From: Turneriella sp.
Lineage (GTDB): Bacteria > Spirochaetota > Leptospiria > Turneriellales > Turneriellaceae
Reading direction: 5' to 3'
Length of the DNA stretch: 64,000 nt
Assembly (NCBI GenBank): GCA_965279515.1
Contig: CBDIID010000003.1
Coordinates: 1,824,001 to 1,888,000 of the forward strand
In this document: in pieces, positions 13,448 through 21,592 of the stretch
Layout: each line of letters opens with the position of its first letter
Position numbering within the stretch: position 1 is the first letter of the stretch
Notes under the pieces: generated by a model
What the model saw: the letters and a program-made list of their open reading frames with translations, nothing else
Told to the model about the DNA's origin: nothing
The model's database searches: none
Made by a program: the position numbers and the translations under genes

Positions 13448-14388
13448 AGCTTGCAATCATCGGTGACATGCACATGCAGTTCGATGAAGAAGACGTGCGC
13501 TTCTTCAATGCCTCGGACTACGATGCAATCCTGATGGTCGGAGATCTCGCTTCCAAAAACCCCGACAGCATGTTTCGGCTTTTGCCCTTGTTGAACCAGC
13601 TCACCAAACCCTCCTACTTTATCCCCGGCAACCACGACACAACCGGCGTACGACAACTGTTGGGCGAGCTGATGCACAATGAGACACTCATTCATTTCGG
13701 CGCAGCATCGCAAGACAGCCGTATGGCGCGCCTCAAAACCGAAATGACAGGCCCGGTCCTCTGTGGTTATTCAACGCACGATCTCGGCGCTTTGCGTCTC
13801 GTCTGCGCGCGGCCGTTTTCGATGGGTGACAGCAATGCCAATAAGACAGATCAGCCGCTGGATTTACCTGTGAACTTCAGGCCGTTTCTGCAAAAAGAAT
13901 ACGGGATCAAAACCCTCGGCGACAGTGCCGCTAAAATCAAAAGCCTCATCGACGCAGTAAATCCCCCCTATGTCATTATGGCACACCACGGGCCATTCGG
14001 GCTCGGGGCGAAGTCAACCGATATGTTCGGCGCCGATTTTTTGCCGGAAGAAACCGACTTTGGCGACCACGATTTAAGCGAAGCTGTCACTTACGCACAG
14101 ACGATCAAAAAACCGCCGCTCGCTGTGATTGCCGGTCATATGCATTACCCGACGAAGCATGGCAAAAAACCGAAGCAGTGGTGGCTCGAGCGCGACAACA
14201 TTCTCTACATCAACGCAGCGCGCTGGCCGCGGATTTTTAAGCATGAGGGTGACACGCTGCGGCACCATGTGCGGCTGACGATCGATATGCGACAGAAGGT
14301 CGTGAGCGAGGCGTGTTATGTCGCGGGTGATGCCATTCAAACGACGACCGATCACCGGGCGACACTGCCCCAGGCCAGGCCGGTTTAA
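13444..14388 (+). CDS. Calcineurin-like metallophosphoesterase
   Basis: GDMH, VGD, PGNHD, AHHGP, AGHMH; ATGA overlap with the GH18 gene. Confidence 0.9.
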   Translation: MKLAIIGDMHMQFDEEDVRFFNASDYDAILMVGDLASKNPDSMFRLLPLLNQLTKPSYFIPGNHDTTGVRQLLGELMHNETLIHFGAASQDSRMARLKTEMTGPVLCGYSTHDLGALRLVCARPFSMGDSNANKTDQPLDLPVNFRPFLQKEYGIKTLGDSAAKIKSLIDAVNPPYVIMAHHGPFGLGAKSTDMFGADFLPEETDFGDHDLSEAVTYAQTIKKPPLAVIAGHMHYPTKHGKKPKQWWLERDNILYINAARWPRIFKHEGDTLRHHVRLTIDMRQKVVSEACYVAGDAIQTTTDHRATLPQARPV

Positions 14389-15083
14389 ATCGCTTTTCCG
14401 CCGTGCGTGCGCGCTCTCAATGCTTTCAGAAATTGCTCCATTTCCACGACGCGTTGCTGGGCCTCTGTTTTTGCGGCCTGCGTGAAGAGCTTACCGGGAA
14501 GTTCTTTCTGAAATTTTTCCAAAGTGGCAGCGGCATCTGCCAATGTCGGCGCCCAGCGATGATTTCCCGTAACGGCAAGAATTCTTGCTACCCCAATGGC
14601 GCCCAGGAAGTCGAGCGTATCGGCATCGTGGAAAACGCGTGCCTCGGCTGAATGACCCACCTCGCTATAGAACATATGGCTGCGCATGGCCTCTTGCACG
14701 CGGGAAAATTTCGCCATCGGAAAGCCTGCCGTCTTTAAGATTTCCTCAGCGACCTGCGCGGCCCGTTCGGTATGGTCTACACCATCCTTTCGGTACGGAG
14801 TGAACACACCTATATCGTGCAAGAAGGCAGCGGCAAAGAGTACATCCGCATCGACAGTAAGTTTTTCATGCAAGGCAAGGCTCATCGCCAACTGGTAATT
14901 GCGCTCACAATGCGCAATACCCCATGACGGGTGCTGCAGCTTTTCGCGGGAGAATTTGTATACCGCTGTTTTCCATGGTGTGTCGAGTGCGATACCCGAA
15001 GCGGTTTGCTGAATAGGTTCGGCGGCGATCAGGGTCGTGGTCAGAAAACAAAGCAGGAAAAAGGTGGGTCTGATTCGATTCAT
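14385..15083 (-). CDS. HD-domain phosphohydrolase with signal peptide
   Basis: AHCER, AAFLHDIG, DH, HDADTLDFLG; N-terminus MNRIRPTFFLLCFLTTTLIAA. Confidence 0.85.
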   Translation of the reverse strand: MNRIRPTFFLLCFLTTTLIAAEPIQQTASGIALDTPWKTAVYKFSREKLQHPSWGIAHCERNYQLAMSLALHEKLTVDADVLFAAAFLHDIGVFTPYRKDGVDHTERAAQVAEEILKTAGFPMAKFSRVQEAMRSHMFYSEVGHSAEARVFHDADTLDFLGAIGVARILAVTGNHRWAPTLADAAATLEKFQKELPGKLFTQAAKTEAQQRVVEMEQFLKALRARTHGGKAI

Positions 15084-15113
15084 ACCCAAACTTATTTACG
15101 GAACATAATTTCG

Positions 15114-17777
15114 TCAAAAATTTTCAGGGCCCCCTTTGTTGGAAGCGACAGGCTGAGGAAACAGCACCGAGATCGAGAAGGATTGCCCCGCAACGGAAGC
15201 AACCTCCATCTTGCCCTGCGCTGATGCGACCATCTTGGCAACGATATCCATTCCCACGCCGCGGCCGCCATGCATGCTGGTCTCGACGCTGGTACTGACC
15301 GAAGGCTCAAAAATCAGCTGCACTGCTTCCGTATCGGACATGCGGTCTGCCTGCGCCGGTGTCAGGCGGTTCATTTTCAACGCCTCTTCTTTAAGGCGCC
15401 GGATATTTACCCCGCGGCCATCATCGCTGTATTGCAATTGAATTCCGTCTTTTCCCTGTTGGATGGACATCGATATCGTGCCGGCCTCTTGTTTTCCGGC
15501 TCCTTTTCTCGCCTCGGTAGATTCTATCCCGTGCACGGCAGAATTTCGCACCAATTGTACAAAAATGTCTTTAATAATCTTCCGCAATTCCCTGGGTACG
15601 ACCTTAAAATCAAAACCCGAAGTGTCGATTTCCACCTTTTGATCGGAACGCAGTACTTTTTCCATATTTTTCCGAACGGCGGTGACGAAAATTGCCAGGG
15701 GATCCGCGACGCGGGTTTCAATACCACTCTGGAATCGCCGGATTTTCTCCTGGAAATCAAAAATTTCCTCAATTCCTGTGCGCAACTGGTAAACAAACCG
15801 GCTGAGCTGGGAAAGTTCATCCAGGCGCAGCGCCTCTTTCCCGAGCAGGGCCTGCAGATGCTCCTCAAATACGTGCGCCTGTTCGCTGATGATGGTGAGT
15901 TGCAGGATGCCTGCCTCTCCCTTCACCGTGTGTACGGAACGAAAGACCTCTTGCAGCAGGGGCTTAAGCGCGGTGGACTGCGAATCATTTAATAATTCGA
16001 TGGCATGTTCGACATTTTCAATTTCCAGCAGCGAATCTTCGATGAACATCTCGAGCATTTTCGGATCGACATGAAGAATGCTGAAAAAATTGGCCCGGGA
16101 CTTTTGCAGACTGTCCTCTGCTTCAATGACGCGGCGACTCAACTCGGTTTCCGCTGTCACATCGCGCACCACCCCGAGCAAAAACTCGACATTGGAGTCT
16201 ACGAGTACGCGCTGAAAATAGAATTCCAGGTATTTTATCTGCAGCTCATCTTTGGCAGCCTGGACGGTCATTTCCACTTTATCAATGGGGTTGAGTTCAA
16301 TGAACATCTGCTCCGAAATAGAGTTCTTAAAACCGAGTTCGAGATAGGATGTCAGGGATTTCAGTTTTTCTTTCGTCAGGGATTTTGCGAGAATCTCATT
16401 TAGAGTACGACCCGCAATCACGGATTCCGAAAAGATAATCTTCGTCGCCTCTGAGAACTGCGTGGCTAGCTGCAGGTTGCGGCCGATGAGAAAGATTCCG
16501 TCGTTGACTGAAGATAAAATCGAATCAGATTCTGATTTTGCCAGCAACAATGCCTGGTTTTTTGAGGCAATGGAAGCGACCATACTGTTAAACGACTGCG
16601 ACAGCAGGCTGATTTCATTTTTGCCCGCGGCCTTTACCCTGACGGATAAATCACCCGCCGCAATTTGCCCGGCAGCTACCGAAAGGTCTGTAATGGGAAC
16701 AGACACCGATTGCGCCAGGCGGAAGCTGAATAATGTCGTCGCGAGAATAATTGCCAGAGCGGTGAAAATAATGAAAAACAGCCGCCAGCGCGTATCCCCG
16801 GAAAACTTACCCAGCTGAGCGGCGAGAAATGAAGAACCTTCAAGGTTTATTTCCTTCAGCGTCAGGGTTATGTCATGAAAATACAGTCCCAGGATCTCGA
16901 GTTCGGCCCGTGCCTCTTGTTTTTTTCCCGTTGCCAGCAGGGTAAATATTTCCCGCGACAGATCGCGCACTGAGTTGAGGGAAATCGCGGCGTCTGCAAG
17001 ACTCTCTTTCTGATTCTTCTGGCTTGTTTGAGTTATGAGATCTTCGAGCATAAACTTCATGCCATTCCACTGCGAATCAAACAAACCCGATTGATCCGTT
17101 TTGCCATAAACTACGGCCTGTTCGATGGTGCGCGAAAGCTCCAGTTGTTTCTGGCGGCTTTCCGTCAGCCGTCTGAAGAAGTCCATCCGTTGTATACCAA
17201 CAGGAGTATCGCTGCCCAGCTGGGCGCCTGCGCTGGTACTGATGAGCGTGTCTTCCATTTCGCGCGAAAGCTGCGCCATGGCGTCCTTGAACAACACCGT
17301 CAGGTCCCAGAAAACGACATCCAGGACTGCCGATTCTTCAAGCGCAGCCTTCGCTGCGCCGTTTTCCAGCTGCTCGGCGATACTTTGTGCCGGAGCATCG
17401 ATTTCTTTTATCTGATTCTGAACACCGCAGATCGGGTTTCCCGGTTTGTTATCCTTACAATCTTCGGGGAGATAAGGGGCAAGCCCCACCACTTCTGATT
17501 TGAGGATATTCAGCCGGGCCTGGGCCGATTTGAATTGCTCCTTATCGGCCGACGCCACCGCCTGAAAAACATCACGGATCAGCACACTTGTCTGTTCATG
17601 AACTTCAGACAGTTTGGTAAAATATTCCGCTTGCTTGTTGAGCCGTGTCGTGCTCTTTAAGAGCCGGTTCACCGGAATGAACAACAATGCGCTCACGATC
17701 AGGTACATACCCGCAACAAACCCCGCGAGCAGGTAGAGCCTTTGTTTTATGGAGAGGTTGGCCAGTAAAGAGCGCAT
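15114..17777 (-). CDS. Transmembrane CheA-like sensor kinase (periplasmic helical sensor-HAMP-PAS-like-Hpt-HATPase; no CheW domain)
   Basis: Two TM helices; HAMP GDLSVRV...NEISLLSQSFNSM; Hpt FRSVHTVKG; CheA-type LVRNSAVHGIE, DDGRG, GGRGVGM; ends right after the ATPase domain. Confidence 0.85.
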   Translation of the reverse strand: MRSLLANLSIKQRLYLLAGFVAGMYLIVSALLFIPVNRLLKSTTRLNKQAEYFTKLSEVHEQTSVLIRDVFQAVASADKEQFKSAQARLNILKSEVVGLAPYLPEDCKDNKPGNPICGVQNQIKEIDAPAQSIAEQLENGAAKAALEESAVLDVVFWDLTVLFKDAMAQLSREMEDTLISTSAGAQLGSDTPVGIQRMDFFRRLTESRQKQLELSRTIEQAVVYGKTDQSGLFDSQWNGMKFMLEDLITQTSQKNQKESLADAAISLNSVRDLSREIFTLLATGKKQEARAELEILGLYFHDITLTLKEINLEGSSFLAAQLGKFSGDTRWRLFFIIFTALAIILATTLFSFRLAQSVSVPITDLSVAAGQIAAGDLSVRVKAAGKNEISLLSQSFNSMVASIASKNQALLLAKSESDSILSSVNDGIFLIGRNLQLATQFSEATKIIFSESVIAGRTLNEILAKSLTKEKLKSLTSYLELGFKNSISEQMFIELNPIDKVEMTVQAAKDELQIKYLEFYFQRVLVDSNVEFLLGVVRDVTAETELSRRVIEAEDSLQKSRANFFSILHVDPKMLEMFIEDSLLEIENVEHAIELLNDSQSTALKPLLQEVFRSVHTVKGEAGILQLTIISEQAHVFEEHLQALLGKEALRLDELSQLSRFVYQLRTGIEEIFDFQEKIRRFQSGIETRVADPLAIFVTAVRKNMEKVLRSDQKVEIDTSGFDFKVVPRELRKIIKDIFVQLVRNSAVHGIESTEARKGAGKQEAGTISMSIQQGKDGIQLQYSDDGRGVNIRRLKEEALKMNRLTPAQADRMSDTEAVQLIFEPSVSTSVETSMHGGRGVGMDIVAKMVASAQGKMEVASVAGQSFSISVLFPQPVASNKGGPENF

Positions 17778-17799
17778 TGTCGTTTCGTTACCCGGAAAT

Positions 17800-18228
17800 T
17801 CAGAGTTCTAAAAGAATCCGTAAGCCTGTTGCGGATTGCCTGTCGACATAACCAATGGCACGCTCAACACGCTTGAGCGCCTTGATCGCCAATTCTTTCG
17901 ATGGCATCGCCTTGGGTTCGCGGATATTGCCCTGTAACTTTTGAGACTGCCAGTATTCCTGCATACTACGGCTGTTTTTCCCGAGCAGTTTCATTTCAAA
18001 CTCTTCACGTAGCCGGGAATTGCCGGGCATGTTCACCGGGATCGCATTGACCCCGTCGATTTGTTTGATTTTCCCGAGGTAGAGGTTGCGGATGTCCGTT
18101 TCGCTGACATTCTTGATCGGCGAATTCGGACTGACAACGACGACCATTCCGCTGCCTGCGGCATATGGGAGTTCTCCGATAAATACCAGGCTTATTAGAA
18201 CGAGAAGCTTTTGCACTTTCTTATTCAT
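17800..18228 (-). CDS. Small periplasmic binding protein (PstS/PBP2-like single domain)
   Basis: Signal peptide; VVVVSPNSP...IRNLYLGK...AIGYVD. Confidence 0.75.
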   Translation of the reverse strand: MNKKVQKLLVLISLVFIGELPYAAGSGMVVVVSPNSPIKNVSETDIRNLYLGKIKQIDGVNAIPVNMPGNSRLREEFEMKLLGKNSRSMQEYWQSQKLQGNIREPKAMPSKELAIKALKRVERAIGYVDRQSATGLRILLEL

Positions 18229-18238
18229 CTTTGACTCC

Positions 18239-19417
18239 TTAAAATAACCAGCTGACATTGATTAAAATGTCGTTACTGATGACGGGTTTTACAGAGTAAA
18301 TATACTCTGCAACGATCTTAACCTGCGTTACAGGCTTAAAGGACAAGTTGGCAATATGCCTTTCCTTGACGGTGCTATCTTTCGTATCCGTACGGAAATC
18401 GTAACGGTAGTAGCTGAAAAGCCGGTCGGTCAGAATATAATAACCCGCCTGACCATAATAACCTTCGTACTCCCGGTTCTTGGTGATTTTCACATAAGCT
18501 GCGGAAAGGTCGATACCCCATTTCTGAACCTGCATATAACCAATGACCGGGGTCTCTATGCCATAAGACAGTTCGTCACTGCGGATAGACGAACCCAGCG
18601 TTAAGTCAACAACGCCAAGGTACTTCATCTGCACATCAGCGTCGATCGCCTTCAGCTTATTGCCGTCGACCCGGTCCGGCTGATCGCCGCGACCGTTCGT
18701 CACATGCGCAGCGTAGGTGAACTCGAACTTGCTGAATGTCTGAATCCCGTTAATGCCGATACCGGTGCCGTTCGTAGGGAAAACATCGTCCCGCATATAA
18801 TCTTTGGTTAAGACGTGAACATTCGGAATCCAGTGGTTCCTGTTGATCAGGCCGTAGGGAGTAAGCAGCTTACCCGCTGAGACTTGAAAGAGATCGTGAA
18901 ACTCGTACTTCACGTACAGGCGTTCAATCTTAATCTCACCACCTGTGCCTTTAATGGTTTGTGGCGTTGAACTTACGCGTACATCCGAACTCTGCAGCAC
19001 GGCCCCATGTTCGTATTCGATCTCACCATAAGCCTGCCAATTTTCCGCGAAACGCGAATTCATAATCAGGTAGAGATGGGCCAGGTCAAAGGTGTTCGCG
19101 TCAGTCTGTTTGTTATGCTTAAAGGCAACGTCGCCCCATGCCAGCCAGTTAAATTTGTTGTCTTTCAACGCATCATCCAGGTCTTTATCTGACTCCGGTT
19201 CAGCAGCGTTATTTTTCGCCTCGGCAGCAACAGGTGCAGCTTCTGTTTTAGCTGTATCTGGCTGCGCTTCGGCCGTAGTTTGTTTTGTCATGACCTCTGC
19301 TTCAGCCGCAGCCGGTGCTTTTCTGGCCACGCCTCTGCGCCGCTTCTTTTGGGCGGGAAAAACCATGCTTGTCAAAACGACAAAAAGCACGGCCATCGAA
19401 AATAAATTTCTAATCAT
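18239..19417 (-). CDS. Porin-like outer-membrane protein
   Basis: Start 19417 after AGGAGG; EIEYEH, IKIERLYV, GKLLTPYG; C-terminal VSWLF. Confidence 0.75.
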   Translation of the reverse strand: MIRNLFSMAVLFVVLTSMVFPAQKKRRRGVARKAPAAAEAEVMTKQTTAEAQPDTAKTEAAPVAAEAKNNAAEPESDKDLDDALKDNKFNWLAWGDVAFKHNKQTDANTFDLAHLYLIMNSRFAENWQAYGEIEYEHGAVLQSSDVRVSSTPQTIKGTGGEIKIERLYVKYEFHDLFQVSAGKLLTPYGLINRNHWIPNVHVLTKDYMRDDVFPTNGTGIGINGIQTFSKFEFTYAAHVTNGRGDQPDRVDGNKLKAIDADVQMKYLGVVDLTLGSSIRSDELSYGIETPVIGYMQVQKWGIDLSAAYVKITKNREYEGYYGQAGYYILTDRLFSYYRYDFRTDTKDSTVKERHIANLSFKPVTQVKIVAEYIYSVKPVISNDILINVSWLF

Positions 19418-19461
19418 GTATCCTCCTGAAATTAAAATCTGTGTTTGAGAAAATCTGTAGA

Positions 19462-19917
19462 CTACGGGTTCACACCCACAACATAGTAGACCAAGTGCGA
19501 CCGCCACGCCACCGCAAAGGTGACGACCGGGGTTTTGATGTTTACGGAACCTTCTTTACCGAAAATCACCGCGGGAATGCTGATTTCAAAGGGTGTTGGC
19601 GTCGACTGCTGGCAGATGCCGCTGATCATGTTCGCCATTTCACCGGTGAGGTCCGCCAACATGTCATCGGTAAGCATATCAGGGCTAAAAGTTTCCTGCC
19701 AGAATTCTTTGAGGAACTCCCGGGTGCAGGTAAAATACGCGCAACCCCGGTAACCGCCTGTCATGCCGATAACACCGGTGATATCCAGGATGCTGCTGCT
19801 GCGAAAATCGTCGTTTCCGTAAACAATAGGAGCTTTGAAGATTGCATCGGTTTTTCCCGCCTGCTCGAAATAGTTTTTGAGGCCCGCACCGAATCCGTCT
19901 ATGATACGCTGATTCAT
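19462..19917 (-). CDS. cheX: CheX-family phosphatase
   Basis: ITGVIGMTG, GEMANMISG (ExxN), ISIPAVIFG. Confidence 0.85.
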   Translation of the reverse strand: MNQRIIDGFGAGLKNYFEQAGKTDAIFKAPIVYGNDDFRSSSILDITGVIGMTGGYRGCAYFTCTREFLKEFWQETFSPDMLTDDMLADLTGEMANMISGICQQSTPTPFEISIPAVIFGKEGSVNIKTPVVTFAVAWRSHLVYYVVGVNP

Positions 19918-19918
19918 C

Positions 19919-20281
19919 TTATTTGCCCCCTTCGACTGCTTCTAACGCTTCTTTCAAGGTAGGCGCCGAAAATGGCTTATTCAGATATTTCTTCGCTCCC
20001 AAATGCATCGCCTCAATGAGGGAATCCTTATTGGTGACCGCGGTTATAACGAGAATTTTCAGATTAGGGTCGAATTTGAGCAGCTCGGCCATGCATTTCA
20101 AGCCATCCATTTCCGGCATGGTGATATCCAGGGTGACCATATCGGGGCGTTTTTCTTTCACAAGTTCGACGGCCTTGACACCGTTTTCCGCTTCAGCCAC
20201 AATTTCATGGCCGCAATCCGTGGCAATTTTCGCAATGGCCATACGGATCATGCGGGAATCATCTATTACAATTATCTTCAT
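19919..20281 (-). CDS. cheY: CheY-like single-domain response regulator
   Basis: IDDS, TLDITMPEMDG, ITA, KPF. Confidence 0.85.
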   Translation of the reverse strand: MKIIVIDDSRMIRMAIAKIATDCGHEIVAEAENGVKAVELVKEKRPDMVTLDITMPEMDGLKCMAELLKFDPNLKILVITAVTNKDSLIEAMHLGAKKYLNKPFSAPTLKEALEAVEGGK

Positions 20282-20414
20282 ATCAAGAATTCAGGTCAAA
20301 TCAGCAATAGCCGTCAATCAGTTGGAATCCTTAGACTATGGAAAACCATAGTCTCGCAAAAATAAGGTTGTTTACGGTCACTATGAACGTAGCCTTTCGC
20401 CAGATTAGGTGTCG

Positions 20415-21050
20415 ATGACGGAAATTCCCGAAGCCAGAAGACTGATGACACAAGGCAAGGCCTCAGAAGCCGCCTTGATACTCGATCGTTACCTGAAGAA
20501 AAAACCTGGCCACAAAAAAGTGCGCCGTATTCTCACCGCGATCCGGAAATGTTACCTGACCATCGATGAAGAAAACGCACTTTTCGACCCGAAAGGAATG
20601 CAATACCAGGAGTTTTACTCCGATTTTAATCAGGTGCGTTTTTTTGCCATCATTCTGACACAGCATTTGCCGCCGCAAATTCAGGAACGCCGCTTGCTGG
20701 AGCAGCAAGTCAGCGAGATTGTTAAGAACGCAATCCGGCATGGCAACAAGGGTCACCTCCCGAAAAAGATAAAAGTTTGGTATGAGTTTGAACCCAGAAT
20801 CCGCTTTATTGTTGCCGACGAAGGCCCCGGTATGTCAAATATGGAAAACTGGAATGTTTTTAACCGCCAGCGCCGCAAGGCAGTTCGTGAAAACGACATG
20901 GAAACGCTGATGGACTTTGCGACATACCACGCAGACCACAGCGACCCGCATGATGGTGGAAACTCCCTCTTCGCCGCCCTGCAATTCTGGGATGAAGGCC
21001 TGATGTATAACACGCAACGCAATAAAGTTGTTGCTGTTAAGGGTTACTGA
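20415..21050 (+). CDS. RsbW-like HATPase protein with N-terminal helical (TPR-like) segment
   Basis: SEIVKNAIRHGN, VADEGPG, DGGNSL; alternative start GTG 20409. Confidence 0.7.
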   Translation: MTEIPEARRLMTQGKASEAALILDRYLKKKPGHKKVRRILTAIRKCYLTIDEENALFDPKGMQYQEFYSDFNQVRFFAIILTQHLPPQIQERRLLEQQVSEIVKNAIRHGNKGHLPKKIKVWYEFEPRIRFIVADEGPGMSNMENWNVFNRQRRKAVRENDMETLMDFATYHADHSDPHDGGNSLFAALQFWDEGLMYNTQRNKVVAVKGY

Positions 21051-21532
21051 TGCCCGAATATCACGACATCATAAACAACAGCCTGCAATCCTTACTGGAA
21101 CAATGGCTCGGTGAGCAAGTGTTCTACGAGCGCGATAAGATCACCAAACAATATGAAAGCAACCACGAAATAACCTGCCACATTTGTTTCTATGATTTCG
21201 CACTCAAAAGGGCCGGGGTTGCCCTGTTAAATGTGGATAAACAAGTGCTGGTGCGCCTTTGGGAGAAAGTATATAAAAGCCCGGTCGAAGACCTGGACTC
21301 TGTTGCAGAAATCGGCAGCGAGCTTCTCAATACCCTTACCGGCAGGGCATTGGAGGCTTTCAATGAGCGTGGCATGAGCATGCACCTTTCGCTGCCAAAC
21401 ATCATAGAAAACTCTCCCCAGCTAAAACTTTCGACATTCGGCAGGGATGATTTTTATTATTACGCATTCAGTGCAGCGGAAATCCGGTTCAGCTGGGTTT
21501 TATGCTTTTACGACGCTAAAGAGTTTGCCTGA
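21050..21532 (+). CDS. CheX/CheC-like protein (second copy, divergent)
   Basis: GSELLNTLTG (ExxN) followed by LSLPNII; start overlaps the upstream stop (TGATG). Confidence 0.65.
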   Translation: MPEYHDIINNSLQSLLEQWLGEQVFYERDKITKQYESNHEITCHICFYDFALKRAGVALLNVDKQVLVRLWEKVYKSPVEDLDSVAEIGSELLNTLTGRALEAFNERGMSMHLSLPNIIENSPQLKLSTFGRDDFYYYAFSAAEIRFSWVLCFYDAKEFA

Positions 21533-21592
21533 CCAGTTTTGGGCGGCAAAATGTTCCACGCGACAAGCTGAGCTTCGCGCAGAGATTGTCCT

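Follow-up and report, generated by a model that had tools for sequence, protein, structure and literature searches.

The window analysed here, a stretch of 64,000 nucleotides from Turneriella sp. (contig CBDIID010000003.1, positions 1,824,001 to 1,888,000), carries between its positions 15114 and 21532 a locus composed of three separable modules: a class III-type histidine kinase with CheY and CheX; an outer-membrane porin with a half-size periplasmic binding protein (half-PBP); and an RsbW-like ATPase with a second CheX-like protein. The new element is the lidded porin, in which the half-PBP is predicted to cover the periplasmic mouth of the barrel in a geometry that is itself new; the signalling core is of an already known kind. 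All seven open reading frames (ORFs) of the locus are present as first described, and their coordinates bear out the reported arrangement of five tightly packed, co-oriented minus-strand genes (cheY, cheX, porin, half-PBP and kinase, separated by 1, 44, 10 and 22 bp when the porin and half-PBP start at ATG 19417 and ATG 18228, respectively) together with a divergent, coupled gene pair.

A predicted lid on the porin

The porin gene (18239-19417, minus strand) encodes 392 residues with a weak match to Pfam Porin_O_P. Its start is likely the ATG at 19417, which is preceded by GGAGGA; the start of the longest ORF, a GTG at 19507, would overlap cheX. The product consists of a signal peptide, an Ala/Glu-rich linker and a predicted barrel spanning residues 86-392, and its AlphaFold2 model (pLDDT 77) displays the features of a general porin, namely 16 strands, an internal loop after strand 5 and a C-terminal Phe, with OmpT, OmpU, ChiP and OmpC as the best Foldseek matches. 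None of the 49 aligned members of the family belongs to an NCBIfam family. Membership of the PopA lipid-trapping superfamily, whose marks are a tight built-in plug, an oligomerising loop 8 and a radial oligomer (PMC12228718), was considered and set aside as unsupported, the profile match to 9ga1 being weak (E 3e-4) and PopA being absent from the Foldseek matches listed for the porin. A second homologue of the porin lies elsewhere in the genome (L150 3536-4903, at about 4734500-4735900 of G000:C3) and has no half-PBP beside it; its neighbours, judged by eye, encode a TonB-dependent receptor, a PepSY protein, an FMN-binding protein and ApbE.

The half-PBP gene (17800-18228, minus strand, starting at the ATG at 18228) encodes 142 residues in which Pfam recognises nothing. 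Its predicted structure (pLDDT 96.7) superposes on one lobe of PstS (TM about 0.7 by query length and 0.35 by target), and a profile built from 133 rows of its family matches only residues 77-190, approximately, of PstS chains. Model and profile together indicate one PstS-type lobe plus a family-specific helix, the latter carrying a conserved Y-W, F, G and P-P. The protein thus shares the fold of the contiguous second lobe of PstS (PDB 4q8r, 1twy and 4gd5), but differs from it in being half the size, in being a single lobe without a cleft, in the added helix, and in the loss of the GSGT phosphate motif, the aligned positions of which read G-N-S-R-L-R. A further difference is that no permease lies nearby: no ATP-binding cassette (ABC) permease was found in the insert that carries the locus, nor among 69 flanking ORFs of other loci described below, which yielded one ABC ATPase domain only.

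The family to which this protein belongs comprises 2494 representative relatives (clusters). Among the 150 homologues listed, 136 are of 200 residues or fewer, 11 of which retain the SG[TS] motif, and nine are tandem two-lobe forms. No NCBIfam family is specific to the half-PBP, and 52 of 133 members match the PstS model weakly; databases carry these proteins under the name ‘phosphate ABC transporter substrate-binding protein’, which is probably mistaken. In one member (P0099, 602 residues) the half-PBP is fused to a lytic transglycosylase (SLT) domain, which hints at a link to the cell wall for some of its relatives.

When the porin and half-PBP were modelled together using ESMFold2, the complex scored 0.77, compared with 0.02 for the best of three controls, and separate runs agreed in at least 94% of contacts, with a partner pLDDT of at least 88. 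The mark used for this score was reached by 116 of 157 solved pairs and by two of 215 mismatched pairs, a calibration that is only rough here because the alignments were self-supplied. The PDB searches made for the half-PBP and the porin turned up no similar complex. On the porin, the predicted contacts involve five of the seven periplasmic turns (residues 40-41, 89-90, 142-147, 245-246 and 279); they also take in the second-last residue, residues 108-114 of the internal loop and, in an alternating pattern, residues close to where strands 1-3 end on the periplasmic side. Both termini of a porin are periplasmic, and contacts at these turns and strand ends would therefore place the partner on the periplasmic mouth of the barrel. 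On the lid, the contacts fall within residues 19-31, 36 and 62-77 (folded-chain numbering) and include the added helix; residues 41-49, which correspond to the ligand face of PstS, are not among the contacts listed, an unlisted residue being best regarded as uncertain. Conservation extends to the face of the lid that is left free (R49 in 79% of members, F52 in 99% and W68 in 97%). The half-PBP probably closes the periplasmic mouth of the porin like a lid, a placement for which the complex prediction supports binding without demonstrating it, and the small, freely diffusing binding protein of the preliminary description gives way to a single PstS lobe, devoid of the phosphate motif, whose predicted seat is the porin.

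Recurrence of the porin and half-PBP as a unit

The proposal that the porin and the small protein belong together is strengthened by their distribution. Across 80 metagenome loci, which were drawn using a proteobacterial motif and hence form a biased sample, the porin is adjacent to the half-PBP in 71, and several of the other nine stop at a contig edge. In seven of seven annotated plasmid or chromid records (eight having been examined out of 19 that match), a porin or a porin-sized hypothetical protein adjoins the half-PBP. Of the 400 other genomes of the phylum that were searched, 58 match the half-PBP, five of them with a short protein; the matches of 270-360 residues in the other 53, and one of 352 residues in G014, were judged from their length alone to be full-length PstS-type proteins and left out. 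All 11 half-PBP ORFs called in eight spirochaete regions abut a porin-like gene, ten of them as judged by BLAST, and in one protein (P0056) the half-PBP and the porin are naturally fused (porin profile E 4e-10; the pairwise BLAST match is weak, at E 1e-4). Word searches with the single proteins were insensitive, the half-PBP retrieving only itself and the porin three matches. From this pattern of adjacency and fusion, the porin and half-PBP appear to be one widespread unit. Searches of the full-text literature, in which subscription papers are largely not covered, found no study of a porin paired with a single-lobe PstS-like protein.

Two further settings of the pair were observed. One spirochaete genome (G327) has seven half-PBP matches, with the pair repeated in tandem three times in one region (L043 5682-12965) and twice in another (L046 6108-10215). 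On an Alteromonas plasmid (L008 3890-8255) the pair lies beside type IV CRISPR genes, which indicates that it can move on plasmids.

A class III-type kinase with its CheY and CheX

The kinase (15114-17777, minus strand, 887 residues) has matches to Pfam HAMP (354-403), Hpt (574-667) and HATPase_c (738-874) and ends 13 residues past the last of these. Neither CheW nor H-kinase_dim was matched by Pfam in the kinase; a control CheA gave Pfam CheW at 8e-19, and the H-kinase_dim model is described as insensitive in PMC10542144. The domain scan bears out the earlier claim of a kinase that possesses its own sensor and lacks CheW. The motifs FRSVHTVKG (His616) and RNSAVHG (Asn745) are both present, and only 128 residues separate His616 from the N box, compared with 323-345 in the three CheAs of this genome in which both motifs were matched, so that there is no room for a dimerisation domain (P3). 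The chain ends 144 residues after the N box, compared with 274-493 in all four CheAs of the genome. Upstream, a first membrane helix (at about 14-36) is followed by a periplasmic region of about 300 residues, a second helix (at about 332-354) and HAMP. The two halves of the periplasmic region match each other (E 3e-4), and its atlas look-alikes are 4HB_MCP_1/TarH; it is likely to consist of two four-helix-bundle repeats in tandem. As for the PAS-like region that had been reported, Pfam does not recognise such a domain, and what stands is a segment that can be aligned with its counterpart in the paralogues described below. In NCBIfam the kinase is matched best by CheA models, which cover residues 712-878 and score far below the cut-off.

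The cheY-like gene (19919-20281, minus strand) encodes 120 residues (Pfam Response_reg 2e-29; best NCBIfam match CheY_Halo, below cut-off) and retains D7, D8, D52, T80 and K102, of which D52 is the likely phospho-acceptor. CheX1 (19462-19917, minus strand, 151 residues; Pfam CheX 1e-14, above cut-off) has the motif E93-x-x-N96. No MCP (methyl-accepting chemotaxis protein), CheW, CheR or CheB gene was found among the eight genes of the insert using the ORF list and Pfam, as had been stated beforehand for the vicinity of the locus; six MCPs and four separate CheA-type loci are found elsewhere in the genome.

The kinase shares with CheA (class II) the CheA-type Hpt (HTVKG), the ATPase and the CheY and CheX partners, but it lacks both the CheW and the dimerisation domain and has its own membrane sensor. 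A survey of CheAs reports a CheW domain in 100% of them and lists the dimerisation domain as core (PMC10542144), and the kinase is therefore not a CheA. It was initially taken for a class II kinase of new design; it fits class III instead, and five further Hpt-ATPase kinases that lack CheW are encoded in the same genome. Class III kinases, as defined by Adebali et al. in 2017 (J Bacteriol 199:e00218-17), reportedly have sensory domains, no dimerisation domain, a single-domain regulator and CheX, and are said to have been proposed to modulate type IV pili. The features attributed to the class recur here: an N-terminal sensory input (two membrane helices, a periplasmic domain and HAMP), an Hpt with its conserved His directly before a CheA-like ATPase and with no dimerisation or CheW domain, and a single-domain response regulator and CheX next door. 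An unorthodox soluble chemoreceptor, an optional feature that many systems of the class have, is not seen, since none of the six MCPsignal matches lies near the locus; the operon further differs from the class in its added porin and half-PBP. No PilT match in the genome reached the cut-off. The kinase, CheY and CheX very probably represent a class III histidine kinase of the kind already described. The work of Adebali et al. is cited and paraphrased in PMC6501615.

The five paralogues (G000:C3 2517082-2519724, 3562027-3564072, 3572022-3574715, 593195-595141 and 4285082-4287418) differ in their inputs (none recognised, GAF, 7TMR-DISM, MASE6 and HAMP). A cheY gene, a cheX gene or both adjoin five of the six class III-type kinases of the genome (four of the five paralogues). 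The suggested partnership of this kinase with its adjacent CheY and CheX is very likely. A run of cheY, cheX and kinase is also seen in another spirochaete record. After one of the paralogues comes a gene with an adenylate/guanylate cyclase domain, whose product might be an output. The cytoplasmic part of the window kinase has best matches of only 31-33% identity in 40 relatives, and this copy is therefore strain-specific; searches with the kinase core found no match in plasmids and one locus in genome contigs.

How the lid might be connected to the kinase

The reading that we favour, and to which we would give an even chance, is that the lid relays an outside signal from the porin to the class III kinase and thence to CheY, with CheX1 resetting the system. 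The half-PBP would be held on the periplasmic mouth of the porin until it is shifted or released, either by a molecule that comes into the pore or by some change of the outer membrane; the freed lid would contact the four-helix sensor of the kinase, HAMP would alter autophosphorylation at His616, phosphate would pass to Asp52 of CheY, and CheX1 would strip it from CheY and thereby reset the signal. In the last and weakest step of this scheme, the output would bias the flagellar motor, which is the most likely target because FliM is present in the genome and no PilT was found above the cut-off (one match, of 568 residues and of the size of PilB/GspE, reached 173 bits).

The genes that surround the pair in other genomes bear directly upon this relay. 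After dereplication of the metagenome loci at 85%, 48 clusters remained, of which 29 representatives have both flanks, and 69 of their 70 flanking ORFs were scanned (one overlapping shadow ORF was dropped). In 12 of the 29 loci the immediate neighbour is an MCP (8), GGDEF (3) or kinase (1) gene, and in spirochaetes the neighbours of the pair include MCPs and SpoIIE phosphatases. A sensor of 146-162 residues, helical by alignment, lies between two membrane helices in 14 of 19 neighbouring signalling proteins examined and appears from such alignments to share the same general fold as the repeats of the window kinase; other neighbouring signalling proteins have CHASE, dCache-like or HDOD domains. 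The MCPs beside the pair share a helical sensor subfamily of about 155 residues that Pfam does not recognise over its cut-off (loci L074, L083, L086, L110, L113, L120, L126, L003 and L010).

Several observations weigh against the relay. The remaining 17 of the 29 loci have no transducer as an immediate neighbour, and neither a class III kinase nor CheX was found beside the pair in the 80 metagenome loci (within three genes) or in the eight spirochaete regions. A profile of ten sensors associated with the pair missed the window kinase (E 0.16 and 0.47, outside the top hits in a search of 14,548 genome ORFs), and no cognate sensor family can therefore be demonstrated. All but one of the rows of the porin alignment are only 11-25% identical to the window porin. 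Finally, the site occupied by the locus holds unrelated genes in most congeners (see below), and chance assembly of the gene set is therefore possible. A likeness in motifs, noted by eye, between the kinase and the MCPs associated with the pair was dropped after the negative profile test.

An unlikely alternative is that the lidded porin acts as a gated or selective entry channel, in which case a ligand entering through it would bind the four-helix bundles of the kinase directly, and the lid would never touch the kinase itself. Tar-type four-helix bundles are generally known to bind small ligands directly, the predicted lid covers the pore mouth, and the negative sensor-profile test is consistent with such a channel; moreover, the pair adjoins sensors of several folds (4HB-type, CHASE and dCache-like), which a shared ligand would explain more easily than would a single protein interface. 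Against this stand the absence of any recurring transporter or catabolic gene beside the pair, the sharing of one sensor subfamily by the neighbouring proteobacterial MCPs, and the conservation of a lid with a free conserved face (R49, F52 and W68), which a plain channel would not obviously need.

Insertion site and assembly of the locus

The locus lies within a 7.2-kb insert (window 14389-21592) at a variable site between phosphoesterase and APH-family genes. These flanking genes abut in G004, and the site holds unrelated genes in four of five congeners (G002, G005, G007 and G011). The G+C content of the region (49.2%, compared with 53.1 +/- 2.4%; 8th percentile) is at most weak support for horizontal transfer. 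Searches of the 33 other genomes of the order, not all of them complete, gave no half-PBP. Conservation elsewhere of the full order of five plus two genes had been set in advance as a point on which the proposal would stand or fall, and none of the other genomes searched yielded that set. A contig of 5912 bases is on record both for a porin 93% identical and for an RsbW-like protein 89% identical to those of the window, and the two records probably refer to the same contig of a close relative. Because the RsbW-like pair is seen alone in other genomes, the half-PBP was not found elsewhere in the order and the site is variable, the set of five plus two genes seems to have been assembled locally, and that one close relative may share it.

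Such a history is compatible with a different view of the pair, namely that it performs a job of its own in the outer membrane (structure, plugging, assembly or uptake) and travels in the operon as a passenger, the kinase sensing something else. The 17 loci without an adjacent transducer, the five paralogous kinases that have no such pair, the tandem repeats in G327 and the position of the locus at an insertion hotspot all favour this view. We nevertheless consider it improbable, since the pair is enclosed by cheX and the kinase, the intervening gaps measuring 44, 10 and 22 bp, and since its 12 transducer neighbours in 29 loci lie far above the few per cent of genes for which such proteins usually account (related loci not being independent).

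An HD-domain gene (14385-15089, minus strand; Pfam HD 3e-11; signal-peptide-like N-terminus by eye), overlooked in the preliminary description, is co-oriented with the kinase gene and lies 24 bp downstream of it, and is possibly a sixth gene of the operon; it was not found in any of the five congeners searched. A promoter scan was uninformative, its top minus-strand site overlapping the cheY start codon, and in four metagenome sequencing runs the matching pieces were short, none bridging two genes.

The divergent RsbW-like and CheX2 genes

The RsbW/SpoIIAB-like GHKL ATPase (20409-21050, plus strand, 213 residues; Pfam HATPase_c and HATPase_c_2; spoIIAB 7.5e-6, below cut-off) and the CheX-like protein CheX2 (21050-21532, plus strand, 160 residues; Pfam CheX 1.2e-5, just under cut-off; motif E91-x-x-N94) are encoded by genes that overlap by 1 bp. 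Orthologues of the RsbW-like protein occur in three of 60 relatives (G001, G003 and G023), in each of which the two genes are again translationally coupled. In G003 both flanks of the unit can be read, and neither places a cheY, porin or class III kinase gene next to it; in G001 and G023 the pairs lie on short contigs, and the five-gene operon is not beside them. The N box and G1 box are conserved in all four aligned copies of the ATPase, which lacks HisKA, and the ExxN motif is kept in all four CheX2 orthologues. The unit, which couples a GHKL ATPase with an ExxN protein, has 25 homologues, of which the named ones come from spirochaetes.

From these comparisons, the RsbW-like/CheX2 pair is probably a separate unit, and a bystander to the operon rather than its output, contrary to the partner-switch output that had been suggested. 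The fuller form of that suggestion, in which a freely diffusing binding protein drives the kinase and the output passes through an RsbW partner switch and the second CheX (or in which, as a variant made plausible by the nine tandem two-lobe proteins among the 150 listed homologues, two half-PBPs rebuild a cleft), draws on the 127-bp intergenic region from which cheY and the RsbW-like gene diverge and on the probable single contig of the close relative, but is made very improbable by a single lobe that has no cleft, by the rarity of the S-G-T/S motif among the short members of its family, by the predicted binding of the lid to the porin, by the occurrence of the RsbW-like/CheX2 unit without the operon, and by the absence of any STAS, PP2C or sigma gene from the insert (ORF list and Pfam) and, by eye, from among the ORFs flanking the unit in G001, G003 and G023.

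Relation to known systems and implications

The proposed relay from a lidded porin to an inner-membrane kinase has partial precedents. In the YfiB-YfiR-YfiN system, a signalling enzyme of the inner membrane is governed by a periplasmic relay that is retained at the outer membrane; YfiB is a lipoprotein, YfiN is a diguanylate cyclase, and YfiR belongs to a different fold class. The likeness lies in a periplasmic binding-protein-like relay at the outer membrane, and the difference in that YfiB is no porin. The MipA/MipB-ParS system of Pseudomonas aeruginosa (PMC10936184) comprises an outer-membrane barrel and a co-purifying partner on its periplasmic side that are proposed to signal to an inner-membrane kinase, an arrangement of barrel, periplasmic partner and kinase that is a precedent for the one described here. 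It differs in that MipB is a lipoprotein of beta-lactamase fold and ParS a classical kinase, and these proteins share no demonstrated homology with the porin, the half-PBP or the class III kinase.

In the literature found, class III kinases are described from sequence only, and the compact operon of Turneriella sp. unites such a kinase with its CheY, its CheX and a candidate input in a single unit that lends itself to reconstitution in vitro. If the lid holds, it corrects the common ‘phosphate ABC transporter substrate-binding protein’ annotation for the entire half-PBP family, and points either to a new form of porin gating or to a new relay between outer and inner membranes, with an interface defined at the level of residues. 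A broader and tentative view, which we consider rather doubtful, is that the pair acts as a trans-envelope device in which a detachable inner lid reports the occupancy of the pore, or the state of the outer membrane, to interchangeable inner-membrane transducers (MCPs, diguanylate cyclases, phosphatases and the class III kinase); if true, this would amount to a means of outer-membrane sensing that does not import the signal, employed across thousands of protein clusters.

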